Source: Candidatus Omnitrophota bacterium
Lineage (GTDB): Bacteria > Omnitrophota > Gorgyraeia > B26-G9
Direction: 5' to 3'
Assembly: GCA_043826565.1 (NCBI GenBank)
Contig: JBDRPX010000037.1
Span: 5,669 to 69,668, forward strand
Length of the DNA: 64,000 nt
Shown: piece by piece, positions 4,237 through 59,667 of the stretch
Numbering within the stretch: position 1 is the stretch's first letter
Layout: the number at the start of each line of letters is the position of its first letter
The notes under the pieces: generated by a model
Told to the model about the DNA's origin: nothing
The model's database searches: none
What the model saw: the letters and a program-made list of their open reading frames with translations, nothing else
Program-made: the position numbers and the translations under genes

Positions 4237-4298
4237 ACAAAATTAAATGCGCAGTAAATATTTAGCGGTATTCGGGTATTAAAACAGGGGGAAATAAA

Positions 4299-6131
4299 AT
4301 GATGATTGGTGCACACTATATTGATGATAATAAGTGTGAATTTACGGTTTGGGCTCCTTTTTTGAATGATGTTTCTTTGAAAATTGTTTCGCCGGATAGT
4401 ATGACTATTCCGATGCAAAAGGATGAACAGGGTTATTGGCGGATTATTGTCGAAAATATTCATGCGAACGTCTGCTACTTATATGAGCTTGATCATGCCC
4501 AGGAAAAACCCGATCCTGCGTCTTTTTATCAACCCAAAGGAGTACATGGCCCGTCACAGGTAATTAACCATAAAAATTTTTCTTGGGGAGACGGCGGATG
4601 GAATGGCATCTCCATTGATAAGATGATAATCTATGAGCTTCACGTAGGGACATTCACTCCGGAGGGAACCTTTGATGCGATTATTCCCCGGCTTGAGGAA
4701 TTAGTGGATCTTGGTATAAATACAATAGAAGTTATGCCGGTAGCGCAATTCCCGGGAACAAGGAACTGGGGGTATGACGGGGTGTACCCATATGCGGTAC
4801 AGAATTCTTATGGCGGCCCGGACGGTTTTAAACGGTTTATTAATGCCTGTCATAAAAAAGGCATAGCGGTAATTCTTGATGTTGTTTATAATCATCTTGG
4901 CCCGGAAGGTAATTACCTTTGCGAGTTCGCGCCATATTTTACTAATAAATATTATACCCCTTGGGGAAATGCTATAAATTTTGATGATGCCTATAGCCCG
5001 GGGGTAAGGAATTATTTTATTGAAAACGCTTTAAGCTGGCTTGAAAATTATCATGTGGACGGTTTGCGATTAGATGCGGTACACAGCATATATGATTTTG
5101 GGGCAAAACATATATTAGAAGAACTGGCGGAAAAAATTTATGATCTTTCTGTCCAAAAAACAAGGAAGCTGTATTTAATAGCCGAAAGCAATCTTAACGA
5201 TATCCGGATTATTAAGCCGGTCGGGGCCGGCGGTTATGGGATTGATGCCCAGTGGTGTGATGATTTTCATCATTGTCTTCACGTTTTACTTACCGGGGAG
5301 CAAACCGGATACTATGCTGATTACGGAAGTACCGGGCAAATGGTAAAATCCTTAAGAGAAGGATTTGTATATTCCGGTCAATATTCTTCTTTTAGAAAAA
5401 AATGTTACGGCAGTTCCTCTAAAGATATCCCGGCAAATCAGCTAATTGTTTTTTCACAAAATCATGATCAGGTGGGCAATCGTATGCTCGGAGACAGGCT
5501 TTCCGGGCTGGTATCATTTGAAGCTTTAAAACTGGCGGCAGCAGCAACAATCTTGTCTGTATATACTCCGATGATTTTTATGGGGCAGGAATATGGAGAA
5601 GAAACACCGTTTCAGTATTTTGTAGATCATTCGGACGAAGATTTAATTGCGGCAGTACGCCGGGGAAGAAAAGAAGAATTTGCCGCGTTTAAATGGAGCG
5701 GAAATCCTCCGGATCCGCAGGATGAGGGATCTTTTTTAGCTTCAAAATTGAAATGGGAACAAAAGAATGAGGGAAGGTACAAGATTTTATGGCAATTTTA
5801 TAAAATTCTTATTATGTTGAAAAAACGTATTCCTGCGATTTCTGATGGCGGAAAAACCCAGATGGAAGTATCGTATGATGAGACGAAAAAACTTATTTTT
5901 TGGAGAAGATGGTATAAACGAAGTGAAATTTTTTGTATAATGAATTTCAGCAAAGAAGATGCGCAGTGCCGCATCGTTCTTCCTTTAGGCAAATGGAAAA
6001 GATTGATAAATTCCTCGCAAGAGCAATGGATGGGAAAAGGGGCATTGCTGCCTGAGTATATAGAGAATAACCAGGAGATCCAGGTGCGCTCATTCGGGAT
6101 AGCTTTGTATGAGAAAGAATTACTAAAATAG
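4299..6131 (+). CDS. treZ: malto-oligosyltrehalose trehalohydrolase (GH13, CBM48 N-term)
   Basis: N-term CEFTVWAP...; GINTIEVMPVAQFPGTRNWGYDGV; ILDVVYNHLGPEGNYL; ~610 aa is typical of TreZ. Confidence 0.8.
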   Translation: MMIGAHYIDDNKCEFTVWAPFLNDVSLKIVSPDSMTIPMQKDEQGYWRIIVENIHANVCYLYELDHAQEKPDPASFYQPKGVHGPSQVINHKNFSWGDGGWNGISIDKMIIYELHVGTFTPEGTFDAIIPRLEELVDLGINTIEVMPVAQFPGTRNWGYDGVYPYAVQNSYGGPDGFKRFINACHKKGIAVILDVVYNHLGPEGNYLCEFAPYFTNKYYTPWGNAINFDDAYSPGVRNYFIENALSWLENYHVDGLRLDAVHSIYDFGAKHILEELAEKIYDLSVQKTRKLYLIAESNLNDIRIIKPVGAGGYGIDAQWCDDFHHCLHVLLTGEQTGYYADYGSTGQMVKSLREGFVYSGQYSSFRKKCYGSSSKDIPANQLIVFSQNHDQVGNRMLGDRLSGLVSFEALKLAAAATILSVYTPMIFMGQEYGEETPFQYFVDHSDEDLIAAVRRGRKEEFAAFKWSGNPPDPQDEGSFLASKLKWEQKNEGRYKILWQFYKILIMLKKRIPAISDGGKTQMEVSYDETKKLIFWRRWYKRSEIFCIMNFSKEDAQCRIVLPLGKWKRLINSSQEQWMGKGALLPEYIENNQEIQVRSFGIALYEKELLK

Positions 6132-6170
6132 AAGATATTAACTCAAAAATCAAAGGTCAAAAGTCAAAAC

Positions 6171-6200
6171 TGCCAGCCTCGCCAGCTTAGCTAGGCGGGC
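6171..6200 (+). terminator. GC-rich hairpin flanked by TCAAAA/TTTTGA repeats after treZ
   Basis: gcctcgccagcttagctaggcgggc forms a stem-loop in an otherwise AT-rich spacer. Confidence 0.35.
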
Positions 6201-6317
6201 AACTTAAAAGTCAAGATTTAAAGTTTATATGGTTTTAAGTTTTATTTGTATTTTTGAATTTTGATTTTAAAAAGTATGTGGATTGAAATATTTTCAGTTT
6301 CAAAAGCTTAGTTTTGT

Positions 6318-11627: not shown

Positions 11628-13124
11628 ATGGAAAAACGAGGCAGCGGCATATTATTGCATATTTCGTCATTACCTTCTGATTTTGGCATCGGAGATATGG
11701 GCGAAGCGGCCTACAAATTCGTTGATTTTTTAGCCCAGGCAAAACAAAAATACTGGCAGGTACTCCCCTTTAACCCGACAAGTTTGATCAACGGCAGCTC
11801 TCCCTACAGCAGTGTCTCGGCGTTTGCCACCAATACATTATTGATCAGCCCGGAATTGTTGTGTAAGGACGGATTTCTTACCTCGGGGGAAATAGATTCA
11901 TCCTCTCAGAACGGCAGCAGGGCGGTTGACTATGAAAATGTTTTGGAATTAAAAGCCAAATTATTTGCCATAGCTTTCGAACGGTTTGAAAAACTTAAAG
12001 ATAAAGCTGGTTTTAATAATTTTTGTTCTGAAAATAAATATTGGTTGGATGATTTTGCCGCGTTCATCGCTTTTAAAGAACATTTTCAGGACTGCATTTG
12101 GACTGACTGGCCGAAGGAGATCAGGGATCGGGATAAAAAATCCATGAATGAGCTTAAAGAGCAGCTGACCCGGCAGATTAAAAAAGAAAAGTTTCTTCAA
12201 TATTTGTTTTTAAAACAATGGATTGGTTTGAAGAATTATTGTAACCAAAAAGGCGTTCAAGTTATCGGAGATATCCCGATCTATGTCACCTATGATAGTG
12301 TTGACGTGTGGAAAAATCCGGAAATTTTTAAACTTGATGAAAATAAAAACCCGGTTTATGTTGCCGGTGTACCTCCGGATTATTTTAGCAAAACCGGTCA
12401 GTTGTGGGGTAATCCGGTATATGATTGGGATGTGCTTGCTGAAAATAATTATTCCTGGTGGATGCAGCGAATAAATCATAATTTAAAACTTTTTGATTTA
12501 ATAAGGATTGATCATTTCCGGGGATTTGTGGATTATTGGCAGGTGAAAAACGCAGAGAAAACAGCAATTAATGGAGAGTGGCAAAAAGCTCCGGCAAAAG
12601 AATTCTTTAAAGCTTTGCTAAAAGAATTTCCCGAACTGCCGTTAATTGCGGAAGATCTGGGGATTATTACTGATGAGGTAAGGGAAACAATGAAATACTT
12701 TGGGTTCCCGGGGATGAAGATAGTGATGTTTGCCTTCGGAGAGGATGATCCGGAGCATCCTTATTTGCCGCAGAATTTTGCGACTAATTGTGTTGCTTAT
12801 ACCGGAACGCATGATAATAATACCGCCCGGGGCTGGTTTGAGCAAGAAACAACCCCGGAAGACCGAAAAAGACTTTCTGATTGTTTAGGTAAGGAAACAA
12901 ATGCCGATAAATTGCACTGGGATCTTATTGAGTTGTTAATGAAGTCTGCAGCGCATACAGTTATTTTTCCTTTGCAGGATGTTTTTGGCCTTCCACAAGC
13001 GGATCGTATGAATATCCCGGGAACAGTGGGCAATAACTGGAAATGGCGTTTTAAACCGGAACAAATTACTCCTCAGGTAACAGTTCAGCTGGCAAAAATG
13101 ACCGAGCAATATTCTCGCACCTAA
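11628..13124 (+). CDS. malQ: 4-alpha-glucanotransferase (amylomaltase, GH77)
   Basis: GSGILLHISSLPSDFGIGDMG N-terminus and GH77 motifs. Confidence 0.85.
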   Translation: MEKRGSGILLHISSLPSDFGIGDMGEAAYKFVDFLAQAKQKYWQVLPFNPTSLINGSSPYSSVSAFATNTLLISPELLCKDGFLTSGEIDSSSQNGSRAVDYENVLELKAKLFAIAFERFEKLKDKAGFNNFCSENKYWLDDFAAFIAFKEHFQDCIWTDWPKEIRDRDKKSMNELKEQLTRQIKKEKFLQYLFLKQWIGLKNYCNQKGVQVIGDIPIYVTYDSVDVWKNPEIFKLDENKNPVYVAGVPPDYFSKTGQLWGNPVYDWDVLAENNYSWWMQRINHNLKLFDLIRIDHFRGFVDYWQVKNAEKTAINGEWQKAPAKEFFKALLKEFPELPLIAEDLGIITDEVRETMKYFGFPGMKIVMFAFGEDDPEHPYLPQNFATNCVAYTGTHDNNTARGWFEQETTPEDRKRLSDCLGKETNADKLHWDLIELLMKSAAHTVIFPLQDVFGLPQADRMNIPGTVGNNWKWRFKPEQITPQVTVQLAKMTEQYSRT

Positions 13125-13151
13125 CCTATTGAAATCATTAGAGAAATTAAT

Positions 13152-13180
13152 TTGCTAAAAAGAAAAAACTATGGTATAAT
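13152..13180 (+). promoter_or_regulatory. sigma70-type promoter TTGCTA-17-TGGTATAAT driving the riboswitch leader
   Basis: -35 ttgcta 13152-13157; extended -10 tggtataat 13172-13180. Confidence 0.55.
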
Positions 13181-13221
13181 TAAGTAGATTTAAAAAGTAT
13201 GTAATTTCTTAAATAAATCCG

Positions 13222-13362
13222 AAAAGGCAAAACTCAAGAAATTGAGTGACGCAAAGCCACGGGTCTAAAGCTTGATGCTAGGATCGCCGGGTATATCGAT
13301 AACGCGAAACTAGGAGCTTGTGATGGCCGGACTGCCGAAGAAAAAGGTAGTCTGGTTTTTTA
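13222..13362 (+). promoter_or_regulatory. c-di-GMP-I (GEMM) riboswitch aptamer (13222-13296) plus intrinsic terminator expression platform (13327-13361)
   Basis: GGCAAAAC-CUCAA-GAAA-UUGAG-UGACGCAAAGCC-ACGGGUCUAAAGC...GCCGGGU aligns almost position by position with the Vibrio Vc2 aptamer (GGCAAACC-P1 GNRA hairpin-GGGACGCAAAGCC-...CUAAA...). Downstream hairpin CCGGACUGCC-gaagaaaaa-GGUAGUCUGG followed by UUUUUU. Confidence 0.8.
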
Positions 13363-13551
13363 ACATATGGAGACAAGATCATGAGGATACAGCGTGTTAC
13401 CCGAAAAATACAGGATGTATTAAGAGGGGATTTTGTACTTTACTCTCTCAAAAAAGAAGGAATAGTAAAGGTAATCTGGTTAACTGTGGTTACTTATATT
13501 ATTTTTTCTTTAATGATTATTTTAGGTAAATGATTACATTAAACCCCACAT

Positions 13552-13568
13552 AGTGATAAAATATCACT
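13552..13568 (+). promoter_or_regulatory. perfect palindrome AGTGATA-aaa-TATCACT (possible operator)
   Basis: 7-bp inverted arms, 3-nt spacer, located between the riboswitch and the promoter of gene A. Confidence 0.3.
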
Positions 13569-13648
13569 AATCTTTCCTAATTTATTATCCTTCAATATGT
13601 TATGCCTCTAAAAAAAGGCCATTTTTGTTTGCGCTACCCTCTAGAATA

Positions 13649-13657
13649 TGGTATACT
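13649..13657 (+). promoter_or_regulatory. extended -10 promoter TGGTATACT upstream of gene A
   Basis: tggtatact at 13649-13657; the same 9-mer recurs upstream of the sixth paralog (40478-40486). Confidence 0.4.
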
Positions 13658-13749
13658 TTAAAACCTTTTATGACTTCTCGCTTTTGCCCCTAACATTTTT
13701 TGTTTTAGCAGGTTAAGATTAATTAATAAAATAAAAGAACGTAGAAGAA

Positions 13750-16700
13750 ATGATGACCAGAAAAAGATTAAAGACTAGACGCTATACGCTGTGCGCTAAA
13801 CGCTTGGTTGTGTTTTTCCTGGTGCAGGCGATGGTTGCCGGCCCTTTGCCGGCGGCGCCGGCGGAGATGCTTACTCCCGCAATCCAAATTAACCATTCCG
13901 GACTGCAGCAGGCTTTTGTCGAAGCCGGCCAAGGAGAAAATTTTCTGCGGGAGTTTGTGGTCCGCAGAAAAGAGATATTATGTGAAGAATATTACGATAA
14001 GCAGAAACTATTACGTAAGGCGGCATATTCTACCGGAGAGATATTTGCGCAGTTTGATTATGACCAACACCGTCAGCTGCAGCATCCTGAAGCAATAGTT
14101 GATACTCTGGTTAACGCTGTTTTAACCAATACGGATATAGGAAAACAACAGGCCGCGGCGTATGTTTTAGAAACTATCAGAATCCCCAGGCGGGATCCCG
14201 GCATAGTTCGGACGGTCAGCAAAACAGATTTAAAAGTAATTGCCGAGAGCCTCGGTATTGCGCTGCACGGAGCTGATATTGATACGATAATTTTAAGTAA
14301 TGGGATCGTGCTTATGCCGGAGGGATATTCTCCCTCAAAAGTACGTGCTCGGGAACAGGTTAGCTTTTCTACTTTGTATTCCGGGGAACGGGCGTTTGGA
14401 GAATATCTTAGCCGGTTGGAAGCGCGGCGTGAGTCCGGGGAAAATAATTCGGCTTTGGATGAGGAGATTGTAACTCTTCGAAAGCTTAGGGATATGCGTA
14501 GATATATGCTTCGATTAACAGAAAAGGCGGATCAGGAGCGTGATTCGGTGATACCGATGCAGGAATATATTGCCGAGAAGGTAAAAACTGAATGGCTGGC
14601 TTGTGCCGGACAAGAAGGCCTTAGTAAAGACCAAGCTTTAAAATCAATCCAACAGGCGCGTATGCTGAACGTCGATTTAAAGTTAGCAGAGGATTTGCTA
14701 GATTTAGCCAAAAGGCATGAACAGGCTTTAGAAAACGAGTGGGTAATTGTTGGGCAGGAATTGCTTCAGGCACAGGAATTGTCCCGGCAAAACAGTAGTC
14801 AGGCAAACAGACAAATAGCTGATTATTGGCAGCGTTCTCACGCGTGTTTAGAACAACAGCTTGAGCAGGCCAAAGAGGAACGGAAAAAGGCTGAGCAGAA
14901 TTTTGAGGAAGAACGCACTTTACAGCTTAGGCAGGTTGAGGAGCACAGAAAAATCGTCAGAGATAATTCTCCGCACCAGATTTTGTTCGCCAAAAAAAGG
15001 AATATTAACACGATTACTTATCGCTTATTAACAATAGCCTTATGTTGTGCCGGGATAGAAGAGTTTAATGAATTAGACATAGACCTGGGCGCGGCCATTA
15101 TTATCGAGCGCGGAGAAAACGGGCCGTTTACAACCAGAGATGATTTTGTGCGGCGGATGTGCGAACGTTTAGGCGCGGATAAGAAATCGTTGATGAAAAA
15201 TATCTGCAAAAATTTCAGTAAGCTTACTATCCGCTTTTCCGCTGAACCTGTCGGAGAGCTGGAACTGGGGGTTGCCAGATATTATATGGACACGATGGAC
15301 GAATTACAGCGGGCGAAAGAACGATTTTCTTACCTGCGGCAGAGGCTGCATCAGGCCCAAGAAGAGCTGAGAGTTGCTTTATATCAGGAGTTAAAAATAA
15401 ACAATTCGTTTGCTGCGGCTGTGAGCGGTTATCCTGAATTGCAGCTGGATATTGAACGGACAGTTTCTTATTGTGAACGCAGTAGAGTTTCCTTCTCTGA
15501 TTATCATTCGCCAAAGTCTGAGTTTATTTCGGTTTTGCATGCTTTACAAAAAATATTTTCAAAAAGAGAGAACGCGGTTAGTTCCCGGATTGATTTCTAT
15601 ACCAATATTATATTTCAATTAATAGGCAGGCTTAGTTACTGGGAGGAAAAAGAAGATAAAGGGCTGAAGTTTTCTTCGAAAGAGATCCATGAATTTGAGC
15701 AGATAAAAATAATGTTGAGACTGCGCAAAATTGCGGAAAGCGGGCGCTATGTTTCGGACATCCATTGTTTTCAGCGTTTGCGGGATGAAGTAAGCAGGAT
15801 TAACTATACGGATGTATTACCGGGTTATCTGTCTACGGTAGCGATGAATGAGACATTATATGCCCGGGTGAATTCTCCGTGGAACATATTGATGAAAAAT
15901 CACCGGCGGGAGGCTCTGACGATGATTCCGGGAGCGGATGATGCGGTTCTTTTAGGAGTGCCGGCAAGGCATATCCTCTCCGAAGAACAGTCGCATCGAA
16001 TATTGGAGATCCCCATAGGATGGGAAATAGAGTTTACTTCGTCACAGCGGTATTTGCCTCCGGTGCCGCGGGAAAAATGGATAGATGCCATTATTCCCAA
16101 CGCCATAGAATTGCACGATAAAGGAGTTATTCTGGCGGATTTGCACAGGTTAAAAGAATATAATCTGCAGCCGACCTGGAGTTGGCGGACACAGCTATTG
16201 ATGCTGCGCAGAGTTATGTCCTTGGCGGGATTTAGCGGGACGCAGGCGGATTCTTTGCAGATTAATGTAGGGATTAAAGAAAAGGATTGGCAGATATTAA
16301 CTCCGGTGATGCGGGAAGACCTGGAAACCGATGCGCACTGGCTAATGTTTAATATTGTAGCAGCTTATGTCTCACCGGGAAGGATTGAACGCAAAAAAGT
16401 GGATAAAGTAGTCCAGGCAAAAGATGTTCAGGTTGTAGATATCGACGGAGAAAAATACCGCCGTTTCGAATATGCGTTTTGTGATTTTGAGAATATCGAA
16501 ATGATCGCGCCGCTGGTGCAGTATGGCCATACTTGTTTATTTTATTATTACTATGTGAGAAACGAATATGAACTGGGAAATTATAATGTTCCCGAATTAT
16601 ATAAGAAATTAGCCGCATTGGGAGAAAAATTAAGAAAGGCGGCTGACCGGGAGGATCTGGTAGGATTATTTGGTATCCAGCTGGATAAAGCTGGTACATA

Positions 16701-16905
16701 CCGGGAAAGCAGTTTGTTGACTCACCGGGAAAGAGGATCTAAACAGATTTTACAAATTAAAGGTATGTTGGATAATTTTCTGCGGGAATTTTGTGATCTT
16801 GCCGGATTACCCCGGGAAGTTGTATTGCCTGCAGAAGAACAAAAGCTTGTGCAGAAATTGAGTGATGAGGGATTTGAGATATTAATTATTGAACAGGCGA
16901 TATAG
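13750..16905 (+). CDS. large secreted protein, member A of EQAI-terminus paralog family (coiled-coil/Q-E-R-rich central region)
   Basis: signal-peptide-like N-term (LVVFFLVQAMVAGPLPAAPA), post-signal motif MLTPAIQINHSGLQQAF, C-terminal ...LIIEQAI-stop. Confidence 0.7.
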   Translation: MMTRKRLKTRRYTLCAKRLVVFFLVQAMVAGPLPAAPAEMLTPAIQINHSGLQQAFVEAGQGENFLREFVVRRKEILCEEYYDKQKLLRKAAYSTGEIFAQFDYDQHRQLQHPEAIVDTLVNAVLTNTDIGKQQAAAYVLETIRIPRRDPGIVRTVSKTDLKVIAESLGIALHGADIDTIILSNGIVLMPEGYSPSKVRAREQVSFSTLYSGERAFGEYLSRLEARRESGENNSALDEEIVTLRKLRDMRRYMLRLTEKADQERDSVIPMQEYIAEKVKTEWLACAGQEGLSKDQALKSIQQARMLNVDLKLAEDLLDLAKRHEQALENEWVIVGQELLQAQELSRQNSSQANRQIADYWQRSHACLEQQLEQAKEERKKAEQNFEEERTLQLRQVEEHRKIVRDNSPHQILFAKKRNINTITYRLLTIALCCAGIEEFNELDIDLGAAIIIERGENGPFTTRDDFVRRMCERLGADKKSLMKNICKNFSKLTIRFSAEPVGELELGVARYYMDTMDELQRAKERFSYLRQRLHQAQEELRVALYQELKINNSFAAAVSGYPELQLDIERTVSYCERSRVSFSDYHSPKSEFISVLHALQKIFSKRENAVSSRIDFYTNIIFQLIGRLSYWEEKEDKGLKFSSKEIHEFEQIKIMLRLRKIAESGRYVSDIHCFQRLRDEVSRINYTDVLPGYLSTVAMNETLYARVNSPWNILMKNHRREALTMIPGADDAVLLGVPARHILSEEQSHRILEIPIGWEIEFTSSQRYLPPVPREKWIDAIIPNAIELHDKGVILADLHRLKEYNLQPTWSWRTQLLMLRRVMSLAGFSGTQADSLQINVGIKEKDWQILTPVMREDLETDAHWLMFNIVAAYVSPGRIERKKVDKVVQAKDVQVVDIDGEKYRRFEYAFCDFENIEMIAPLVQYGHTCLFYYYYVRNEYELGNYNVPELYKKLAALGEKLRKAADREDLVGLFGIQLDKAGTYRESSLLTHRERGSKQILQIKGMLDNFLREFCDLAGLPREVVLPAEEQKLVQKLSDEGFEILIIEQAI

Positions 16906-16998
16906 AGTGGATTGCAAATTGCAAATAACAAATTGCAGATTAAACTAATGAAAATAAAAAAACAAATAAACTACATAATAATATTTTTGCTGGTGCAG
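16891..16998 (+). repeat. 108-nt junction repeat copy 1 (3' end of upstream gene + spacer + 5' signal-peptide coding of next gene)
   Basis: gaacaggcgatatagagtggattgcaaattgcaaataacaaattgcagattaaactaatgaaaataaaaaaacaaataaac...ctggtgcag, near-identical to 19720-19827. Confidence 0.9.
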
Positions 16999-19734
16999 AT
17001 GATAGCAATGAACAATGTTGTTTTTGCTCTTTCTCCTCAAATTAATATTAAAGGGGCAGCCTTGCAGAAAATTTTTGAGAGTAATAAAAAACCGCAAACC
17101 AGCCAGTTAATGGAACATGATTCCGGGAGGGGATACAGAGTATTTGATTTGCCGGAAGGATATCGTGATATTACTGTTGTTTTGATCCATCGCGGGGCCG
17201 GTTTTGGGAACCGGGGTGCGGTTAATAACCTATTAGTTAGTTTACAGCATCAATTCCGCGGTAAAAATATTAGTTTGCGATTAGCTTATAGTTTGGGGCG
17301 GCCGGGAGAAGAATCTGATCAGGAACTGCGTATGCAACAGGAGCTGATTGCTCAAAGAAATAGTAAGGCAGAAGCTGAAGGCCTGCCGAAAATTGAATTG
17401 GAAACATATTATACATTTACCATGGATGGAACACCGGTCATATCGGGGCTTCGAAAAACTGATGTGGCGATTTATTTTGGGTATGATTCTGCGGAAATGT
17501 TGGATGTGGCGCAGGATGAAGCTGATTTTTTAAGAAGAGAACAGATGGATGCAAAACTGGCATTTCATATTCCGATTTATGCTACCGGATACAGGCTTCG
17601 CGATGTTGATTATGCCCGCATTCTCAGAGGGGGAACAATACACAGAGTTATTCCGACAGCTAATTTTTTAAAAGGAACAGGCCGGATTGTTATTAACCCG
17701 GAACTTGTTGCGAAAAGTATCAAAATTGACGGATTAAATAAACAAGATGTTTTGCAGGAAAGAAGAAAGTTATTAGATAAACTGGGAGTAACGGAGATAC
17801 CTGATGGAGCTGAAGAAACAACTTGGGCATTTGCTTATACCCATAATTACGGAAAACTGGAAGAGTTTTTAAGAAATTGTGGAAAAAGCAAACAAAAGAT
17901 AACTCTTTTTCTTGCTCCAGGATATCTTATTAACCGGACGGTTAAATATTATTATAAAGATAATATCCGGCAGTTATTGGAATATTTTAAGGCTATCCCG
18001 GACAATGTTAATATTGTATTCTTAGAAGAAAATTTAGAGCGTAAAGACGCATATAACCAGATCATGCTTTTATCAGGAGTGTTGACGGAATATGGTTTAA
18101 AAGGGGGGTTTCCCAATCTGATTACCGGCGATCAATCGACCAGTGAAGTACTTTCGGCGCGCAGATTATTTGTGCATGACGGGATGAATGCGCAGGATGG
18201 AGATGAATTATGGCAGGGGTTATTTGCCGGGCCGCTGCAGAGATTTACCGTGCAATACAATGACTTGGAAGATATAGATAATAATTGGCCTAATCTGTTT
18301 ACTGCTAATCCCCAGGGAATGCCGGGAGAGTTTTCTGTCTTTAAGGCCATGGAAATGCAGATGGAATTTATTGCGGCCATAGACAGTATTCTAGAGCGGC
18401 GCAATATTGTTGATCATATTGGAAAGACGATTGTTGCCGAGGCAAGCCGTCAGGCTGCGGATGAGAACCTGGAAGCGATGTTAGATACTGCAGTGGTATT
18501 AAGAGAACAGTTAAATGGTTCGGTTTTTGAAAAAGTTTCCGCAGATATTTTTCAGGATGTTTATGTCTGTGTAAATCCCCGGACAAACCAATTTGTTACT
18601 TTATATGTTCCGACCAACATTGCTCAGCAATGGGAAACTAGTAATGGTGAAAAAGGTAAGCGTTTTGGCGGCCAGTATTCAGGAATGGTTGAACTGCACA
18701 ACCTGACGGGTATCGTCGGTGGAGAGCAACAGAAGCTTACTTTGGCTTTTGCCCATCCGGAAAATGGATTAGAACAAAATAATGATTTATCTATTCCCGG
18801 CAAAAAAGATCCGATGCTTGCTTTGACTGATGAGACATTTGGTTCCGGAGAAATAGCTAACTATGTGCAGAGGGTGCGGAATTTAATTATGGGAGAAAGC
18901 ATTGAGATTGTTAATATCCATTCTGAGCAGGAATTTAATGATTATCTGGGGATAGCGCCGGAGGAACATTCTGCGATTTTGTATTCAGAACATCCGGAGA
19001 CAACCTTAAGAGTTATGTGTAAAAACTTTAATGAAGATAAACCGCTGGCTAATATTAGAAAAGAACATACTTTTGCCGCGCGTATTCAGGCTAATGGCCG
19101 GGAATATATTTGGTTTGCCCAATTCTCCATCGGAGATGATAAGCAGATAAGATATAATGAAGCATATTTAATGAAGGTATTAGAGGAAACTGAGCATAAG
19201 TACCTGGAAGTCGGCCATGGATATTATGATGTGCCTAAAAATCCTGTTCCCGGTCATTGCTGTATTGATCTTATGTATGGAATTGATAACCGCTTTCGAT
19301 TTCAGGAAGCGCATATTAAGCATGCCCGGGCATTATTTGAACTGCGGTTAAAAGCGCTGGATAAGCTCTATAAACCTGCTGCATTTGTTATTCCTTCCGG
19401 ACAAATAATTTCAGATATTGCATTGTATTTTTACGGCCGGTTTGGATTTTTGCCCTTGGACTACGGAGCCAGAGCAGATGTGACTTCTAAATATTTAATT
19501 CCTTACCGGATTAAATCTCCGGGAAAAATGATCGGGGAGGGGATGGAAGTTTTTGGTAAATATCTGATTATCGGAGCGTTTGGAGATTTTGCTCTGGTGT
19601 TGAGACCGCAAGGGATCAAAGGGAGTAAAAGACATTTTGATATGCCGGAGATGTTAAAAAATAGAGGTATTCCCATATCAATGCAGCAACCGCCGGCACG
19701 AAGACATCTGGAGCTTATTGAACAGGCGATATAG
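16948..19734 (+). CDS. large secreted protein, member B of EQAI-terminus paralog family
   Basis: [17 protein letters not shown] signal peptide; ALSPQINIKGAALQKIF motif; C-term LELIEQAI-stop; C-terminal ~150-aa domain (EYIWFAQ...GHGYYD...FGFLPL) is shared with member E. Confidence 0.75.
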   Translation: MKIKKQINYIIIFLLVQMIAMNNVVFALSPQINIKGAALQKIFESNKKPQTSQLMEHDSGRGYRVFDLPEGYRDITVVLIHRGAGFGNRGAVNNLLVSLQHQFRGKNISLRLAYSLGRPGEESDQELRMQQELIAQRNSKAEAEGLPKIELETYYTFTMDGTPVISGLRKTDVAIYFGYDSAEMLDVAQDEADFLRREQMDAKLAFHIPIYATGYRLRDVDYARILRGGTIHRVIPTANFLKGTGRIVINPELVAKSIKIDGLNKQDVLQERRKLLDKLGVTEIPDGAEETTWAFAYTHNYGKLEEFLRNCGKSKQKITLFLAPGYLINRTVKYYYKDNIRQLLEYFKAIPDNVNIVFLEENLERKDAYNQIMLLSGVLTEYGLKGGFPNLITGDQSTSEVLSARRLFVHDGMNAQDGDELWQGLFAGPLQRFTVQYNDLEDIDNNWPNLFTANPQGMPGEFSVFKAMEMQMEFIAAIDSILERRNIVDHIGKTIVAEASRQAADENLEAMLDTAVVLREQLNGSVFEKVSADIFQDVYVCVNPRTNQFVTLYVPTNIAQQWETSNGEKGKRFGGQYSGMVELHNLTGIVGGEQQKLTLAFAHPENGLEQNNDLSIPGKKDPMLALTDETFGSGEIANYVQRVRNLIMGESIEIVNIHSEQEFNDYLGIAPEEHSAILYSEHPETTLRVMCKNFNEDKPLANIRKEHTFAARIQANGREYIWFAQFSIGDDKQIRYNEAYLMKVLEETEHKYLEVGHGYYDVPKNPVPGHCCIDLMYGIDNRFRFQEAHIKHARALFELRLKALDKLYKPAAFVIPSGQIISDIALYFYGRFGFLPLDYGARADVTSKYLIPYRIKSPGKMIGEGMEVFGKYLIIGAFGDFALVLRPQGIKGSKRHFDMPEMLKNRGIPISMQQPPARRHLELIEQAI

Positions 19735-19827
19735 AGTGGATTGCAAATTGCAAATAACAAATTGCAGATTAAACTAATGAAAATAAAAAAACAAATAAAC
19801 CACATAATAATATTTTTACTGGTGCAG
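19720..19827 (+). repeat. 108-nt junction repeat copy 2
   Basis: about 2 mismatches versus 16891-16998. Confidence 0.9.
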
Positions 19828-21069
19828 GTATTGTTTTTAATTCCGCATGCTTTAGCTTTAGATGAATATACATTGTCCCCCCAGCTGGTGGTAGGCGGAG
19901 GTTTTTTTGGTGAAGCTTATCTGCGGTTATTAGCGCAGGACGAAGCGCGTTTAAGCCGGCAGGAACAGGAAATTTTCACGCAGCTTTTTGATGCGCTTGA
20001 AATAGACCTGAACAGTTTGGCTTGGGACACACAAGGGAATGATTATGATTTATCCGAAGTGCCGGTTGCTGATATTAATGAAGATACTTTGCGGGAAATG
20101 TTTTGTTTGCCTTTTAGTTATAAAATCGGTGGTACTTTAGGGATTATTCGTTATCAAAATTTTCCGATATTAATTTATCTTTGTGATCAAGTAAGGAACG
20201 TAACTTTTATTGACCTGACAAAATATTATCGTTCATCATTTGCCGCTAATTTAGGCTGGGGAATTAAACAGGATATATGTATAATCTTTAAAAGGAAGAA
20301 TTTTTTTAAAGTAAGTCAAATTGAAATAACTCATCCGTATGTTACCGTAGCTATCAACGGCAGCGGTGATCTTGCTCATATTACCGAATATGATTTTAGT
20401 GATGAAGAGGCGGATGTCTTCCCCAGAAGAAAGATAGAATTACCTTTATTGCCCGGGGTCTGGATGCCCAAAAGTACGTCAAGTTATTTAATTGCCGAGG
20501 CAACTGCAGAATTTGTGCGTCCGGGGATGAGAGTGCTGGTTATTGGAACCGGAGCTGGCCTGGAAGCGCGGATTGCCGCGGAAAAAGGAGCCTTGGTCGA
20601 TGCGGTTGATATTAAGAAGCTGGCAGTTAGAAATACAAAACTGACATGTTCAGAAGAAGAGTATGCGGTGCGGGTTAATGCTTTTGTTAATAATATGTTT
20701 CATGGCTTGGGAAAATATGATTTGATTATCTGGAATATGCCGCATTTTGTCGGGACGGAAGAGCCAAAAGAGGATTTTCCCGATTATTCCAATAGTTCTG
20801 ATTTTACGGGGAAAATATTGCGGGAATTTGCGCAAAACGTATGTTCGCATTTGAAAAAAAATGGAAAAGCTGTTGTGATTAACAAAAGCGATGAACAGGT
20901 GAAACAGATCCTGGAATATTTTTCGGGTAAACATGTTGAGGATTATGGGGTCTCTAAAAAACGATACTCTCAAGGGTATATTATAGATAATCAACGGGTA
21001 AAAAGATGGAAGAAGATGAGGCCTTTCCCGGAAGGGATAATAAGTGTTTATATGGAGCAGGCGGTATAA
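19777..21069 (+). CDS. secreted protein, member C of EQAI-terminus family, with class I SAM-methyltransferase-like Rossmann domain
   Basis: [17 protein letters not shown]; TLSPQLVVGG motif; VLVIGTGAGLEARIAAEKGALVDAVDI (motif I) and IIWNMPHF (NPPY-like motif IV); C-term VYMEQAV-stop. Confidence 0.7.
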   Translation: MKIKKQINHIIIFLLVQVLFLIPHALALDEYTLSPQLVVGGGFFGEAYLRLLAQDEARLSRQEQEIFTQLFDALEIDLNSLAWDTQGNDYDLSEVPVADINEDTLREMFCLPFSYKIGGTLGIIRYQNFPILIYLCDQVRNVTFIDLTKYYRSSFAANLGWGIKQDICIIFKRKNFFKVSQIEITHPYVTVAINGSGDLAHITEYDFSDEEADVFPRRKIELPLLPGVWMPKSTSSYLIAEATAEFVRPGMRVLVIGTGAGLEARIAAEKGALVDAVDIKKLAVRNTKLTCSEEEYAVRVNAFVNNMFHGLGKYDLIIWNMPHFVGTEEPKEDFPDYSNSSDFTGKILREFAQNVCSHLKKNGKAVVINKSDEQVKQILEYFSGKHVEDYGVSKKRYSQGYIIDNQRVKRWKKMRPFPEGIISVYMEQAV

Positions 21070-21073
21070 GTAA

Positions 21074-21105
21074 AGAGTAGTGAGTAGCAAGTAGAGAGTA
21101 GAGAG
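21074..21105 (+). repeat. tandem heptamer array (AGAGTAG TGAGTAG CAAGTAG AGAGTAG) directly after stop codon
   Basis: 7-nt period places TAG in all three frames. Confidence 0.7.
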
Positions 21106-21123
21106 AAAGATAAAAAGTAAATA

Positions 21124-23568
21124 ATGAAAATAAAAAAACAAATAAACCACATAATAATATTTTTGCTGGCGCAAACATTTTTGTTCGGACAGTGTGTTTG
21201 GGCCGGACAGACGGATACTCTTGCGCCGCAATTAAAGGTGTATACACCTGTTTTGCATAAAGATTTTCTCCAACAGATGTCTATTTCTGTTGTCCCGATG
21301 CTTGCTGAACATCTTGATAAATTAGATATCAAGGAGCAATACATAGACGGGAAAGAGGATACTTTAACATTAATTCGCCAGGCGCATGACGGGCTTATAA
21401 GAGCAGGATATCCGATTTCTTCCCGGATAGTCAAAACATATACTCCGGAATACTTGCATATTGACGGTTGCTCAGCTTTTTCAACGGGAAGAATTCAAAT
21501 GGTTTGTTTTCGGGTAAACGGAAATTTTGATCAAAAAAGCATTGCTATCCCGCGGCCTCATGATGAAGCATATTGTTTTTCTTTAATAAGCGGAGGAAAA
21601 GTTGTCGGCCATGGAGTTCTAGCCTATGATTACCATCATCCGGATACGGTATTTTTTAGATATGCTATACACGGCAGCCATTTTATTGTAGATGGATATG
21701 ATTTTACAAATCAGGGGTTTGGAACAGACAGCCTCACATTACTGGCGGCAATCATAAAAACCGGGAAGCTTTTTCCTGCGAATATGCGGAAAATGGAGTA
21801 TTTAGCCAGTAATGATGACCTTTTAAAATGGGGCAATTTTTCTCCCATTTATAACCGGATGAAGAAGTTTTTGCTGAAATCCGGATTTGTTGATGCCTCA
21901 GAAGAGAGAATTGCGCCGTTTTTTGATATTACTAAACAAAACATCGGATTTAAGTTAGGAAATAATGATGAAGGCAGTGTTGCCGGACAAAGAGTTTATT
22001 TGTCAGCTAGTGTTGCCGGCTGTATTGGTAAGCCGGCAAAATATATTCATGATGCTTTGCTGAAAGTACCTCCGGAACTTATTGCGGAAGCATATTACCG
22101 GCGTTTTAACTTATTATCAAATCCATATGGCAAGGAATTTCAAGGTTTGTGGGGCCGGGATGAAACCAAAGCTATAGAATTCCTTGCGAGAGGATATAAA
22201 ACATTGCATGATCTTAATAGTCAGGGCCATGTCCGGGTAGATTTTATTCCGCATGATATGAAAGGAGATGTTCCGGAAGGATTAGAAGGCATGGTTTTGT
22301 TCAGTAATTCCAAGAAAGCTTATCAGACTGAATTTGTAGAATGGGCATGGGTTCCGGAAGTAGAAGCATGGCTGCCGGTAGCAGATGAAAGCGCTAAGAC
22401 TTCGCAACGGCCGGCATTTATACGTGTTGTGCTTACCGCGGATAAAAAGAAAGTAGTAAGAGTAGCGAAGAGCCTTACAAAAGATAAGTTACAGGAACTT
22501 ATCTTAGAGCATGGAGATTGTATTGTCTGCGGCAGAGTTCCGCCAAGTGCTCACTTGTCACTTGTGCGTGACAGTTCTCTGGGCATACGTGAAAGCGGAA
22601 ACTATACTATTGATGGAAAAGGAAATAATTTGTATATAGCATCTCTTAGCCGGGAAGGGGTGCCGACCGGTTTTCAGTTTTTTGGGAACGGAGAAAAGGT
22701 TCCACTGCGGGTAGCTGTAAAAAGAAATCGTGAAGGGAAAGTGATGGAGAGGATCGAATCCCAGAGATATTTTGCCGGAGAAACATTGGCGCAGATATAT
22801 GCGAAAAAAGGGCAGTATTGGGTGATGCCGGTCTATGTGCAAACCCCTGTTCATTCAGCCCGGCATACAAAGATCCAGGCTGGCTCACGTTTTGTTGTGA
22901 CCGGAGAAAAAGGAAAAAAAATCAAGAGCGAAGTAACAGAAGAAGTGGAATATAATTATTATCTGGATGCGGCATATTCCGGAGCAGAGGCGCAGCTTTT
23001 GATCGGCCGCTCCGGGGTGCCGGTTTATTTATATGTTTCCGGTGATGTCCGGAAGGGGGTGCCGGCATTAGAGTGCTTGTTAAAATTGATAGAGGTGAGG
23101 AATAGCCGGGATGAAGTTATTGATGTTATAAACTCATCTAATGCCGAGATATCCCGGCAAATTCTGCAAATAGCAGTAAAAAATGCCCGGGTTAAAGATG
23201 GACGCGTAGTAGTAACACGAATACCGGTAGAATCCTCTTTTTTAAAACGAAGCACTTTAGCTGTACGCTGCGGCGGAGAGGAAATATGTGTTAATCAAAA
23301 ATTGCCGGATTTCCCCGGTCAAAAATATGCGGAGCTGGTTTATGGAAAAAATAAATTTGATGCGCCGGTTCCGATTAGTATCAGAATAGGATTTTATGAG
23401 GGTGATGATCCGCTTAATTTTAACAAAATAAAATTTCATGTGTTAAAGGAATTTTTCATTGAACGTGCGCAAAATAATAAGTTCTATGAGACCAGAGAAA
23501 CAAAGACTTTGGTGGAAACTGAAAAAATGCCGCTGGAAAATTTAACTATTCTGGAACAGGCGATATGA
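21124..23568 (+). CDS. large secreted protein, member D of EQAI-terminus family
   Basis: [17 protein letters not shown]; TLAPQLKVYTPVLHKDF; C-term LTILEQAI-stop. Confidence 0.75.
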   Translation: MKIKKQINHIIIFLLAQTFLFGQCVWAGQTDTLAPQLKVYTPVLHKDFLQQMSISVVPMLAEHLDKLDIKEQYIDGKEDTLTLIRQAHDGLIRAGYPISSRIVKTYTPEYLHIDGCSAFSTGRIQMVCFRVNGNFDQKSIAIPRPHDEAYCFSLISGGKVVGHGVLAYDYHHPDTVFFRYAIHGSHFIVDGYDFTNQGFGTDSLTLLAAIIKTGKLFPANMRKMEYLASNDDLLKWGNFSPIYNRMKKFLLKSGFVDASEERIAPFFDITKQNIGFKLGNNDEGSVAGQRVYLSASVAGCIGKPAKYIHDALLKVPPELIAEAYYRRFNLLSNPYGKEFQGLWGRDETKAIEFLARGYKTLHDLNSQGHVRVDFIPHDMKGDVPEGLEGMVLFSNSKKAYQTEFVEWAWVPEVEAWLPVADESAKTSQRPAFIRVVLTADKKKVVRVAKSLTKDKLQELILEHGDCIVCGRVPPSAHLSLVRDSSLGIRESGNYTIDGKGNNLYIASLSREGVPTGFQFFGNGEKVPLRVAVKRNREGKVMERIESQRYFAGETLAQIYAKKGQYWVMPVYVQTPVHSARHTKIQAGSRFVVTGEKGKKIKSEVTEEVEYNYYLDAAYSGAEAQLLIGRSGVPVYLYVSGDVRKGVPALECLLKLIEVRNSRDEVIDVINSSNAEISRQILQIAVKNARVKDGRVVVTRIPVESSFLKRSTLAVRCGGEEICVNQKLPDFPGQKYAELVYGKNKFDAPVPISIRIGFYEGDDPLNFNKIKFHVLKEFFIERAQNNKFYETRETKTLVETEKMPLENLTILEQAI

Positions 23569-23573
23569 TCAAA

Positions 23574-23591
23574 GAGTAGCGAGTAGAGAGA
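23574..23591 (+). repeat. GAGTAG heptamer repeat (AGAGTAG CGAGTAG AGAG) after stop codon
   Basis: same motif as 21074-21105 and 30676-30710. Confidence 0.6.
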
Positions 23592-23607
23592 ATATATAAC
23601 GTAAGAT

Positions 23608-25593
23608 ATGAAAATAAAAAAACAAATAAACCACATAATAATATTTTTACTGGTACAGGCGATGAGTGCTGGTTCCCTGGCTATTGCTGTTCCGGAAGAC
23701 CGGACTTTATCTGCGAAAATTATCATTAATCAGCAATCCTTGCAGGAAGTATTTGCCCGTCTATCTCAACAGGATGATGAGGTGTTACAATGGGGTAGTT
23801 CCCGTATTCCTAACTCTCTGCCTCAAGAAAGTATCCCCGCGGAAATGTGGCGGGATACTTTTAGCAGAAATCCGGTTTCTCGATATATTCAAAATATTAG
23901 AGATAATATTACCGGAGCAGATGTTGATATTACTGTTTTAGATTCCACGGCGCAGTTATTAGAGTATCTGGGATTGACAGAACCGAGAGATATTGTTTGT
24001 TCCGGATATCTTAGTGAGCTGCAGCTTATGTGTCAATCAGCGGAAAAGCCGGAGTTTGTCAAAATGGTGACGCAATTAAAACAGCTTATGCCATCACAAA
24101 TGCCTGTGGGTAATATGCTGGCAGCACGTATTTATAAGAATGGGTATGAATATATCTGGATAACCCAGGTGCTTCCCGATCAGTCTATCCCGCCGGATGA
24201 TTTTATTTTTAATGAAACATATTTAGTAGCTGAAACTCAAAAGGGAAGAAAGAAATATGTTGAAATAGGTCATGGTTATTATGGAGTCAGCGGAGTTCAA
24301 GGCGGAAGAATCGGCTTATCTTTTGGGATTGATGAGGATTATCAATCCCGGCATAGAAACGGCGGGAAATTCAGCCATGCGCATAATATATTTGAATTCA
24401 GGCTGCAGGCATTAGAGACACTCTTTAGGCCGAGTATTCTTATTGTGCCTCAGGCGCAGGCAACAAGTGCACCTGATTTTTCCCGGAAAACAGTTTTATT
24501 TTACGCCGGATTCGGGTTTCTGCCTTTAAAAGATTTTAGAAGGGAACAGCTGGTTAACGGATATCTTTTGCCGGTGAAAATAAACCGGACTTTGGCAAAG
24601 ATAAAAAATCCCGCGGCGGTTTTTGACGATAAGTTTATGTATAAAGCCGGCGACTTCATGCTGATTTTAAGAGATAAAAGAACGGAAATAAAAGATGTTT
24701 GCAGACGATACCGGATCTTTGATGAAGCCGAAGTCCGGCAATATGAAGCGCTGAATGCGCGTTACGGTCAAAACCCCTCAGCTTTAGATGACTCAGAAGC
24801 ATACGATCTGTTTGGGTATTTGAGTATTACAGGAAGGCTTAACCAGGGAAATAATTATGCCGTGCTTATTCAGAGAATCGGATGGCTGAAGGCTCAGGCC
24901 CAAAAAGGAGGAGAATTTAAACAGCAAATCGGCGGTAAATACATTGGCCATATTGTCGGGATGAACGATGTCTTGAATCCGGCAGCGCCGTATTTAGATA
25001 TTAAGCCCCAGGATACTGTGCTTGATATCGGTTTTGCCGTCGGCGGAGAAACGATTGGTTTAGCAGCAGCTCATCCGGAGGCTGATTTTGTTATGGCTAA
25101 CCCGGAACTGAGATTTGTACAGCATGCTGTTCGTCAGGCGGAATCTTACCGGCCTTTGTTAAATAATTTGCGGATTGCTCCAAAAGTTTTTGAGGAACTT
25201 GCTTTACCGGCACATTCGGTTAATCATATTATTATTCGTAACATTTTCTTTGACTTAGATGAGGTGAAGATAAAAGATATGCTGATAGAATTAATGCGCA
25301 TTGCCGCCCCGGATGCTACGATTGTAATTACCGGATATCGGCATTTAGAGAAAAATACACAGGAAAATGCTCGAGCTGGTATAAAACCTGAGTATAATCT
25401 GGAGTTATTGACAGAAGTATGTGCAGAGATGGGGATTAGTTATACGGTTGATCATCCCACATCTTTTCCTAATCGTGATGCGCGGATCAGGCTAATTCCG
25501 GCGAGTCGACGAAATACATTATTCGAAGAGACCCAAGCTGTGAGTTTAAAAAAGAAAGCAGAGCCAGCTGTTTTTGTCGAACAGGCAATATAA
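23608..25593 (+). CDS. secreted protein, member E of EQAI-terminus family; N-terminal half shares domain with B, C-terminal half SAM-MTase-like
   Basis: [27 protein letters not shown]; [18 protein letters not shown]; YEYIWITQ...GHGYYGV...FGFLPL; [14 protein letters not shown] (motif I); C-term VFVEQAI-stop. Confidence 0.75.
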
Positions 25594-25639
25594 TCCATCC
25601 TTTACCCTTACCGGTTTTTCCTATATAATAACATCTACT

Positions 25640-26884
25640 ATGGAAAAAGTTATCCTTGTTACTATCAAGCTTGATGATAAGTCGGAGCAATGGTCTTTGG
25701 AAGAACTAAGCCAGGAGCTTCGGGTCCTTTCAAAAACCGCGCATGCTGATATCGTCGGTGAAATAAAATGTAATCGTCACGCGCCGATGCCTTCCTTATA
25801 TATAGGGAAAGGAAAAGCCGAGGAACTGAAACAATTGATAGCCGAAACTGGAGCCCAGACGGTTATCTTTAATAATGACCTTACTCCCACCCAGGGGCGG
25901 AATCTTGAAGAAATCCTTGATGTGAAAACAATCGACCGGACCCAGTTAATTCTGGATATCTTTGCTTCTCATGCCAAAAGTCAGGAAGGAAAAGTTCAAG
26001 TTGAATTAGCTCAATTGCAATATCTTCTGCCGAGGCTTTCCGGGAAGGGAACGGAACTTTCGCGTTTAGGCGGCGGAATCGGAACCCGCGGCCCGGGAGA
26101 ACAGAAGCTGGAAATAGACCGCAGAAGAATCCGGGACAGAATAGATCTTCTTAAAAAAGATATAACCGCGGTCAAAAACCGCCGTTTGGAAATTAGAAAA
26201 AAACGCCGGGAAAATGATATCCCCGCGATCGCGATGGTCGGATATACTAATGCCGGGAAATCGACTTTGCTCAATGCCTTGACTGATGCCCGGGTAAAGG
26301 TAAAGGATGAGATGTTTAGTACTCTTGATGCGATTACCCGAAGATTTGTTTTGCCGGTAAGCGGACAGACTGTGCTTTTTTCCGATACCGTCGGATTTTT
26401 GTATAAATTACCGCATCATCTGATTGAAGCATTTAAAGCTACACTTGAAGTGGTAACCGAAGCTGATCTTTTACTTGTGGTGCTTGATGTTTCCAGTGAA
26501 AAAATGCATCAGCATAATGACGCGATATGGCAGGTCTTAGGAGAGCTTCAGGCCCTGAATAAGCCGGTTTTGTATGTTTTGAATAAAATTGATAATCTGC
26601 ATGACGAGAGCATGATGGAACGATTTAAATTAAAATTCGACCAATGTATTTCGATTTCCGCTAAAGACAGGATCAATTTAGATGGACTTATCAATTATAT
26701 AGAAACACATTTATTTAACCGGGTTACTGACCTGAAAATATTTATCGAACACGCTAATGCCAAAGTAATACATTACATTCATGAACATGGTAAAGTGAAT
26801 TATTGTGAATATCGTGATGAGGGGGTATACCTGGAAGCAAAACTTCCGGCTTTGCTCGCTAAAAAAGTGATCACTCAGATATAA
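25640..26884 (+). CDS. hflX: GTPase HflX
   Basis: [34 protein letters not shown]; start taken at MEKVILV (ORF track begins upstream at 25574). Confidence 0.85.
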
Positions 26885-59665: not shown

Positions 59666-59667
59666 TT

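Follow-up and report, generated by a model that had tools for sequence, protein, structure and literature searches.

Can proteins with unrelated bodies form one family by virtue of their ends, and what would such ends be for? The question is raised by a 64,000-nucleotide (nt) stretch of a Candidatus Omnitrophota genome (contig JBDRPX010000037.1; hereafter the window), in which five consecutive genes on the + strand, A to E, encode proteins with a common signal peptide, a common motif behind it (N-motif) and a common C-terminal tail (Table 1). A reading made from the sequence alone had singled out these genes as a cargo family with shared termini, and all five are present as open reading frames (ORFs). 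Our best reading is that they belong to a family that appears restricted to one clade of Omnitrophota and is defined by this three-part frame, not by the bodies. The shared-terminus structure is borne out more strongly than the sequence-only reading could know, whereas the sorting, docking or processing function that it attached to the termini is not, no partner having been found.

Proteins B to E start with MKIKKQIN[HY]IIIFLL[VA]Q, and A with a longer, more basic version. Signal peptides were judged throughout by simple rules only (n-region charge, Kyte-Doolittle core and -3/-1 sites), and these rules place one in each of the five proteins. The motif, L[AST][PA]x[ILV]x[IV]-x4-[LF]-x3-[FY], follows 0-6 residues from a -3/-1 cleavage-type site in A to E, as had been proposed. 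The C termini read IIEQAI (A), LIEQAI (B), YMEQAV (C), ILEQAI (D) and FVEQAI (E), confirming the last residues listed earlier (IEQAI, IEQAI, MEQAV, LEQAI and VEQAI). The lengths given there, 442-1051 amino acids (aa), hold at the upper end (A) but not at the lower: 442 aa for C, like 940 aa for B, would come from upstream TTG starts, and NCBI annotates ATG starts that give 430 and 928 aa.

A sixth member, gene F, lies 15 kb from the array just before uvrA. A regular-expression scan of the window ORFs gave its motif HLAPQVQIDSINFKDAY and tail ELVENAI; it is also the top match of the N-motif profile described below. The window has 264 stop-to-stop ORFs of 60 aa or more, and an ending in [ILVMF]E.A[IVL] occurs in A to F alone. 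F has no DNA repeat in common with the array, and what is conserved in its motif and tail is therefore the protein sequence. The six proteins derive from one Candidatus Omnitrophota metagenome-assembled genome (MAG; NCBI MFH2138927-31 and MFH2138948, gene A being MFH2138927.1), A and F are also present in a Logan assembly (run SRR26275510 for F), and each of the six is a singleton cluster among ~15 billion proteins. A membrane-anchored alpha/beta hydrolase at 38077-38877 ends in KSFLESI, resembling the family tail. It was rejected as a seventh member, having no N-motif and a tail one residue out of register, and the resemblance is probably a coincidence.

The family extends beyond this genome. 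We took 80 loci around relatives of HflX, one genome per species, and inspected the region upstream of hflX. Six intact members occur in five other Omnitrophota species, all between malQ and hflX, the same position as the array, and all with a signal-peptide-like N-terminus followed by the motif (for example, TLSPQIFLQNNSLLDVF, NLAPALAINQLHIKELL and FLSPAINMGLDVLRGIF). NCBI holds identical protein records for four of the six; the protein of locus L002 is also in NCBI, the retrieved representative agreeing in length only, and that of L007 was not found there. The shared ends are thus not limited to tandem duplicates, a doubt that the sequence-only reading had raised against itself: F carries them 15 kb away without DNA similarity, and the six proteins carry them in five species.

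Table 1. Family members in the window and in related Omnitrophota loci, with other features of the window. Positions refer to the window, or to the named locus for relatives; percentages are HflX identity to the window.
Feature	Positions	Strand	Details
Gene A	13750-16905	+	1051 aa; N-motif LTPAIQINHSGLQQAF at 13870-13917; tail LIIEQAI, ending 16902
Gene B	16948-19734	+	928 aa from conserved ATG; N-motif LSPQINIKGAALQKIF at 17029-17076; tail ELIEQAI
Gene C	19777-21069	+	430 aa; N-motif LSPQLVVGGGFFGEAY at 19873-19920; tail VYMEQAV
Gene D	21124-23568	+	814 aa; N-motif LAPQLKVYTPVLHKDF at 21220-21267; tail TILEQAI
Gene E	23608-25593	+	661 aa; N-motif at 23707-23754; tail VFVEQAI
Gene F, dispersed sixth member	40539-42947	+	802 aa; signal peptide MKKMSKQKYIIYIVALIFVLNVSLAQA; N-motif LAPQVQIDSINFKDAY at 40647-40694; tail AELVENAI
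L001 (70%)			653 aa; C-like methyltransferase; tail ELVGEAI
L002 (64%)			347 aa; HAD hydrolase; tail LLLESSI
L005 (63%), first gene			526 aa; helical; tail LIASAI
L005 (63%), second gene			346 aa; HAD hydrolase; tail LHLETSI
L006 (66%)	131-7219		2362 aa; DHH + PRK + CYTH; tail LVEQAI
L007 (63%)			about 885 aa; helical; tail FLGQSI
Junction repeat copy 1 (A/B)	16886-16998	+	113 nt, 98% identical to copy 2
Junction repeat copy 2 (B/C)	19715-19827	+	113 nt, 98% identical to copy 1
Promoter-like site	13152-13180	+	TTGCTA-17-TATAAT with extended -10 TG; 36 nt upstream of riboswitch
c-di-GMP-I riboswitch aptamer	13216-13300	+	Rfam RF01051, 67.5 bits against a gathering threshold of 35, E = 5e-13, full-length
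Terminator-type expression platform	13325-13361	+	12-bp hairpin GGCCGGACUGCC/GGUAGUCUGGUU followed by UUUU; 25 nt downstream of aptamer
Small ORF	13381-13533		50 aa; GGAG 8 nt upstream; hydrophobic C-terminus; first ORF after riboswitch

Across the 12 intact members, the n-region carries a net charge of +2 to +8, the best 12-residue core has a mean Kyte-Doolittle value of 1.9-3.3 and at least one -3/-1 site lies between core and motif, each without exception; in most members a Gln or Asn also stands within the core or directly behind it (LLVQ, VLIQ, IIQI). The family-wide motif reads L-[STA]-P-x-[ILV]-x-[ILVM]-(N)-x3-hydrophobic-x3-[FYL] and begins 0-25 residues past the predicted cleavage site. 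The tail, too, is kept in the relatives in a relaxed form: VEQAI in L006, VGEAI in L001 (the ortholog of C) and ESSI, ETSI, ASAI or GQSI in the others. Because of these endings the C-tail is more general than EQAI and takes the cross-species form hydrophobic(-5)-hydrophobic(-4)-[EGA]-polar-[AS]-[IV]-COOH, all 12 members having [AS] at -1 and [IV] at 0; judged from this alignment, a strict EQAI tag is too narrow and is a local variant.

The 20 residues before the tail are somewhat richer in disorder-type residues than the bodies (0.56 versus 0.50; Wilcoxon one-sided p = 0.03) and contain a proline in 9 of the 12 members; this weakly suggests that the hydrophilic stretch is a tethered peptide. 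A C-terminal hydrophobic helix is absent, the proteins stopping 5-8 residues after the hydrophilic stretch. No lipobox with Cys occurs in the six window proteins, and the Cys found near the end of the core in L001, L005 and L007 stands without a canonical lipobox. No Pfam or NCBIfam model matches the motif or the tail, in line with the earlier statement that the tail fits no known sorting signal, and the NCBIfam sorting-domain models gave no match at E <= 1. The idea that the tail forms an amphipathic helix was dropped, its hydrophobic moment being no greater than that of interior controls.

Do motif and tail belong together? Outside the window, among 2281 ORFs of at least 150 aa in loci L001-L160, nine carry L[AST]Px[ILV]x[ILVM] behind a hydrophobic core in their first 150 residues. 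Six of these nine end in [AS][IV], compared with 38 of the other 2272 (Fisher one-sided P = 3e-9, a value that is indicative only, the tail pattern having been relaxed after the data were seen). The six ORFs with both elements are exactly the six members from the relatives, and the other three motif ORFs lie in Firmicutes loci.

A decayed copy in L004 (8852-9811, identical in L083 and L084) suggests selection on the protein itself. This HAD-type gene retains signal peptide and motif, an in-frame stop interrupts it at codon 68, where its orthologs encode Gln, and its C-terminus has diverged and lacks the tail. These lesions make it a probable pseudogene, whose sequence is identical in one MAG and two metagenome contigs.

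Since the family copies between malQ and hflX number 0, 1, 2 or 5, this junction is a variable hotspot, where the family has been gained, expanded, swapped and lost among close relatives. Searches by similarity performed poorly by comparison with gene order. Word-indexed homolog searches matched E only to itself and B, and F only to itself; a hidden Markov model of the N-motif, which the sequence-only reading had recommended as the way to a wider family, returned in an exhaustive HMMER search (six sequences, 44 positions) only A to F and two spurious repeat proteins. Taking this result to mean that there is no wider family was rejected, as synteny showed members that the profile had missed; the failure is one of sensitivity, and the family size is for that reason a lower bound. 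A scan of metagenome contigs with HflX (80 loci) added no further member.

Because the frame stays at the termini across species while the bodies are exchanged, we take it to be selected in its own right. It has been kept through body replacement, insertion, dispersal to a second locus and speciation, and the tail has been lost in the decayed copy. We postulate that the frame is a recognition module, read after export through Sec by a shared partner whose role would lie in sorting, docking or a second secretion step, and that the proteins are its cargo. At least some members would be effectors of a host-dependent bacterium, working within another cell. In this genome the family grew to five tandem copies in the interval from malQ to hflX, through duplication and through gene conversion at the junction repeats. 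A selected recognition module for a shared post-Sec step, on cargo with possible action in another cell, is the account that we tentatively prefer, stopping just short of calling it probable.

The bodies are largely unrelated, as had been noticed from the array: BLASTP among the window proteins finds similarity only in the N-terminal segments and in one body domain common to B and E. That domain, first put at ~150 aa, measures ~290 aa (B 615-886, E 70-355; 32% identity, E = 6e-33). Methyltransferase folds had been assigned to C and E. The assignment stands for C, with a predicted C-terminal S-adenosylmethionine (SAM)-dependent N-methyltransferase domain that carries GTGAG and NMPH motifs and matches Pfam MTS at 3.3e-7, above gathering; for E it is weak, resting on a class I methyltransferase region at ~460-610 (Methyltransf_25 at 2e-4, below gathering), the name given by NCBI being class I SAM-dependent methyltransferase. 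NCBIfam HemK2/MTQ2-like models match C at 8e-17 to 3e-14, far below their cut-offs, so that by these scores C is best described as a relative of the HemK/PrmC-like methyltransferase fold and not an equivalog. The C-terminal half of the L001 protein aligns with C at 36% identity over 353 aa (E = 8e-71), GTGAG and NMPH being invariant; this ortholog has 220 extra aa inserted after the motif and retains both motif and tail.

Elsewhere in the family, Pfam recognises HAD hydrolases (L002, L005 and the L004 pseudogene) and, in the L006 protein, DHH, PRK/uridine-kinase-like and CYTH domains; the latter protein is named class IV adenylate cyclase by NCBI and stands there under three accessions. A, B, D and F and the helical L005 and L007 proteins have no Pfam match, neither NCBIfam nor PADLOC gave a useful match for A, B, D and F, and searches of PDB sequences found none for A, B and D. 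The B/E domain and part of D were considered as GNAT acetyltransferases from a by-eye FYxxFGFLPL and dropped, since neither Pfam at E <= 10 nor PDB profiles gave one; a fold search with the model of the B/E domain (predicted local distance difference test, pLDDT, 48.5) returned only noise.

Enzymes that need SAM or ATP are unexpected among periplasmic proteins, behind an export signal. As SAM, ATP and phosphorylated metabolites are not expected outside the cytoplasm, we suggest that at least some of these proteins would act in another cell. Long Omnitrophota proteins with metabolic-type enzyme domains are reported to carry signal peptides commonly (2026 preprint 10.64898/2026.06.07.730766), and given that recurrence, signal peptides on metabolic-type enzymes may be a trait of the phylum.

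How much of the frame is owed to recent copying? Two near-identical repeats span the junctions A/B and B/C (Table 1): copy 1 runs from the final 6 codons of A and its stop through 42 nt of spacer, which carries TTGCAAAT-like repeats, into the first 17 codons of B. The 67-nt start regions of B, C, D and E are 84-88% identical. The array has thus undergone concerted evolution, by duplication or gene conversion at its junctions, and, given the near-identical junction DNA, we ascribe to this process the sameness of the signal peptides and some of the tail identity within the array.

The codons of the tail bear out only in part the first proposal, that they are conserved beyond what the amino acids require. 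The stretch GAACAGGCGATA is indeed exact in A, B and D, but C differs at two positions and E at one, F uses GAA AAC GCC ATA, and this genome in any case prefers GAA and CAG (68% and 73%). Synonymous variation reaches Ala (GCG/GCA/GCC/GCT) and Ile (ATA/ATT/ATC), a pattern in favour of the recognition-module account in that selection would act on the tail as protein. The spacers between A and B (16903-16947) and between B and C (19732-19776) are identical, with three TTGCAAAT-like repeats, and those between C and D (21070-21123) and between D and E (23569-23607) are purine-rich with GAGTAG repeats; none has an obvious Shine-Dalgarno sequence before the ATG.

Trehalose and glycogen genes lie upstream of the array, and hflX-hrcA-grpE-dnaK-dnaJ downstream. 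Before A lies a gap of 625 nt, in which a promoter-like site, a riboswitch, a terminator hairpin and a small ORF follow one another (Table 1). The promoter-like site has the best + strand score in 13000-26000, which amounts to a consensus match only, the regional promoter count being at chance; a stretch of the promoter region, ggtatggtataat...aaaaagtatgtaat, recurs after malQ in L004. The aptamer match and its terminator make it a solid prediction that the array is headed by a riboswitch of the cyclic di-GMP (c-di-GMP)-I class, and the minimum-free-energy fold of 13205-13375 has z = -2.95. Riboswitches of this class often control surface or secreted factors.

The small ORF, whose 46-62 aa are basic in the N-terminal half and close with a hydrophobic segment, is conserved immediately behind malQ whether the family is present or absent (L002 8306, L004 8529, L082 9726, L009 9627, L012 9629 and L014 9666). 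It has no match in Pfam, NCBIfam or PADLOC, and was dropped as a family-specific partner because relatives that lack the family also conserve it. At the other end of the array, 74 nt separate the end of E from the conserved ATG of hflX, and a possible TTG start further upstream overlaps E (25574-25667). There is no terminator-like site between the two genes, and the distance from the last family gene to hflX is 72-323 nt in the other species. Owing to this short distance, the lack of a terminator-like site and the similar layout elsewhere, the family genes may be co-transcribed with hflX.

All annotated genes of the window are on the + strand except two (36536-36883 and 38904-39491). GC skew is positive in every 2-kb bin of 1-64000, and together these two observations suggest that the whole window lies on one leading-strand replichore. 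Genes for GspJ and GspK (type II secretion pseudopilins) and a PilM/PilN fusion at 58219-61023 show, at the level of gene content, that the organism has filament machinery of type II or type IV, and no link between this machinery and the family was established. As context, we count these genes, the riboswitch and the signal peptides reported in the preprint on the side of the recognition-module account.

Several observations weigh against the recognition-module account. The sequence-only reading had proposed looking for a peptidase or sorting enzyme that accompanies the family, but neither the neighbourhood nor co-occurrence yielded one, or a receptor: the neighbours are housekeeping genes, and no PDZ protein, S41 protease, sortase-like enzyme or secretin was seen near the array, in a view that spans 64 kb of this genome and 20-kb loci of the relatives. 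Export of the members is predicted from rule-based features alone. The tail has no distinctive amphipathic signature, helical or strand, in its hydrophobic moment, and AlphaFold returned low-confidence models (pLDDT 38.7 for C from a single sequence and 48.5 for the B/E domain from two). The 12 intact members, a lower bound, all come from a narrow clade, and among the HflX relatives L081 (71%), L082 (67%), L009, L012 and L014 have no member between malQ and hflX. Finally, the riboswitch did not turn up in the matching loci of seven Omnitrophota relatives and was dropped as a conserved feature of the family; because of this, and because it directly precedes a small ORF that is independent of the family, its link to the family is positional only.

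Other explanations draw on parts of the same evidence. That both elements always stand at the extreme ends and always co-occur would suit a structural clasp or assembly element, with motif and tail in contact within or between proteins, so that the frame would be architecture and not an address label; it might close a common scaffold round a variable insert, link proteins into head-to-tail chains or build a shared envelope-anchoring domain. The motif has a strand-like alternation (L-x-P-x-hydrophobic-x-hydrophobic) followed by hydrophobics at i/i+4 spacing, the tail offers two adjacent hydrophobics and a hydrophobic last residue, and five tandem, probably co-transcribed members would suit a complex. 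We nevertheless consider a clasp unlikely, as both AlphaFold runs gave it no structural support, the distance from signal-peptide site to motif varies from 0 to 25 residues, the hydrophilic, often proline-containing stretch before the tail looks like a tethered peptide rather than a core, and the single-copy species (L001, L002, L006 and L007) cannot form hetero-chains. That same stretch would fit a C-terminal degron or quality-control tag, read by a periplasmic protease of the Prc/Tsp, CtpA or DegP/DegS type or by a PDZ protein that would set their lifetime or processing, with the N-motif as a separate processing or folding element. The last two residues of the tail are a small one and an aliphatic one with a free carboxylate, a polar residue stands before them, and PDZ domains and tail-specific proteases bind peptides of this general style. 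A degron strikes us as improbable, given that neither a PDZ nor an S41 protease gene was seen in the window, that the strict coupling to the N-motif would go unexplained and that unrelated bodies would have no evident reason to need one turnover signal.

The bodies themselves raise the possibility that nothing is exported, the proteins being held by an uncleaved membrane anchor or otherwise cell-associated and acting on the producer's own substrates: methyltransferases, kinases and phosphatases normally need cytoplasmic cofactors, and the signal peptides are rule-based calls. All 12 members, however, combine positive charge before the core with acidic or neutral residues and -3/-1 sites after it, a layout that by the positive-inside rule places the body outside the cytoplasm, and a membrane-tethered set of enzymes in place of secreted cargo seems quite unlikely to us. 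The near-identical junctions and start regions next to unrelated bodies, like the singleton status of A to F, would be expected if the shared ends were a historical residue of common ancestry and gene conversion with no function of their own. Yet F and the members in five other species keep motif and tail in the absence of DNA similarity and written in different codons, neither the replacement of bodies nor an insertion of 220 aa has removed the frame, the two elements are statistically coupled outside the window, and the pseudogene has lost its tail. These cross-species sequence comparisons largely exclude a mere residue, which we regard as highly improbable.

The recognition-module account can be taken a step further, to a previously undescribed Omnitrophota route in which a post-Sec machine would read motif and tail jointly and deliver enzyme effectors to the cell surface or to host or prey cells, under c-di-GMP control in this genome. 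In this full form we think the proposal doubtful; were it true, the effectors would be methyltransferases, phosphatases and nucleotide-metabolising enzymes. The Omnitrophota are described as uncultured, mostly ultra-small and thought to be host-dependent, with cell-cell interaction an open question (PMC10066038). Two short terminal tags would provide a sequence handle for listing exported or effector proteins of the phylum and would permit a search for the machine that reads them; short tags on unrelated bodies also make the proposal directly testable. The locus also illustrates clearly how variable a hotspot between two housekeeping genes can be.

How does the frame compare with known systems? 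The substrates of LPXTG/sortase, PEP-CTERM/exosortase and GlyGly-CTERM/rhombosortase likewise have unrelated bodies, a signal peptide with a short, lineage-restricted terminal signature and paralog expansion. Sortase- and exosortase-type signals, however, consist of a motif, a transmembrane helix and a basic cluster, whereas this family has a 6-8-residue end tail without a transmembrane segment; those systems have a dedicated enzyme, and here none was seen in 64 kb of this genome and the 20-kb loci of the relatives, and there is an extra N-terminal motif. Cargo with the type IX C-terminal domain (CTD) also joins a Sec signal peptide and a C-terminal element to diverse bodies, and that element directs a second step, across the outer membrane; it is a folded, immunoglobulin-like domain of ~70-100 residues from Bacteroidota, against at most 8 residues in this family, where Pfam and NCBIfam gave no match to it (TIGR04183 / Por_Secre_tail). 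Type I (RTX) substrates have an uncleaved C-terminal signal, often GGxGxD repeats and no Sec signal, unlike these proteins with their signal-peptide-like N-terminus and no RTX match. The ligands of PDZ domains and tail proteases (outer-membrane protein YxF for DegS, those of Prc/Tsp and CtpA, and the GspC PDZ) are recognised, on extracytoplasmic proteins, by a free C-terminal hydrophobic residue and the 3-5 residues before it; their consensus is another one and is not known to come with a coupled N-motif. The resemblance is in style only, and no PDZ partner was found.

Encapsulin cargo-loading peptides and microcompartment encapsulation peptides are likewise short terminal labels on flexible linkers that mark unrelated enzymes, but those systems are cytoplasmic, their cargo has no signal peptides and shell genes are absent here. 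In polymorphic toxin and effector arrays, as here, tandem paralogs in a variable hotspot have conserved ends, swapped enzymatic bodies and recombination at the junctions. Polymorphic toxins have immunity genes, whereas the family genes abut with 39-54-nt spacers and no small ORFs between them, and PAAR, Rhs, LXG or MIX-like trafficking or toxin domains were not found with Pfam, NCBIfam or PADLOC; moreover, the extreme C-terminus of a polymorphic toxin normally holds the toxin domain, and in this family it belongs to the conserved part. The YSIRK-G/S signal and the autotransporter extended signal peptide region resemble the frame in conserving a signal-peptide feature across cargo, here [LI][IV]Q in the core together with the post-cleavage motif, but they have other motifs, belong to other lineages and have no coupled C-terminal tail of this kind. 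What appears new at this locus is therefore a lineage-restricted, bipartite terminal frame on proteins predicted to be exported, of a kind already known from cargo families with terminal sorting tags.

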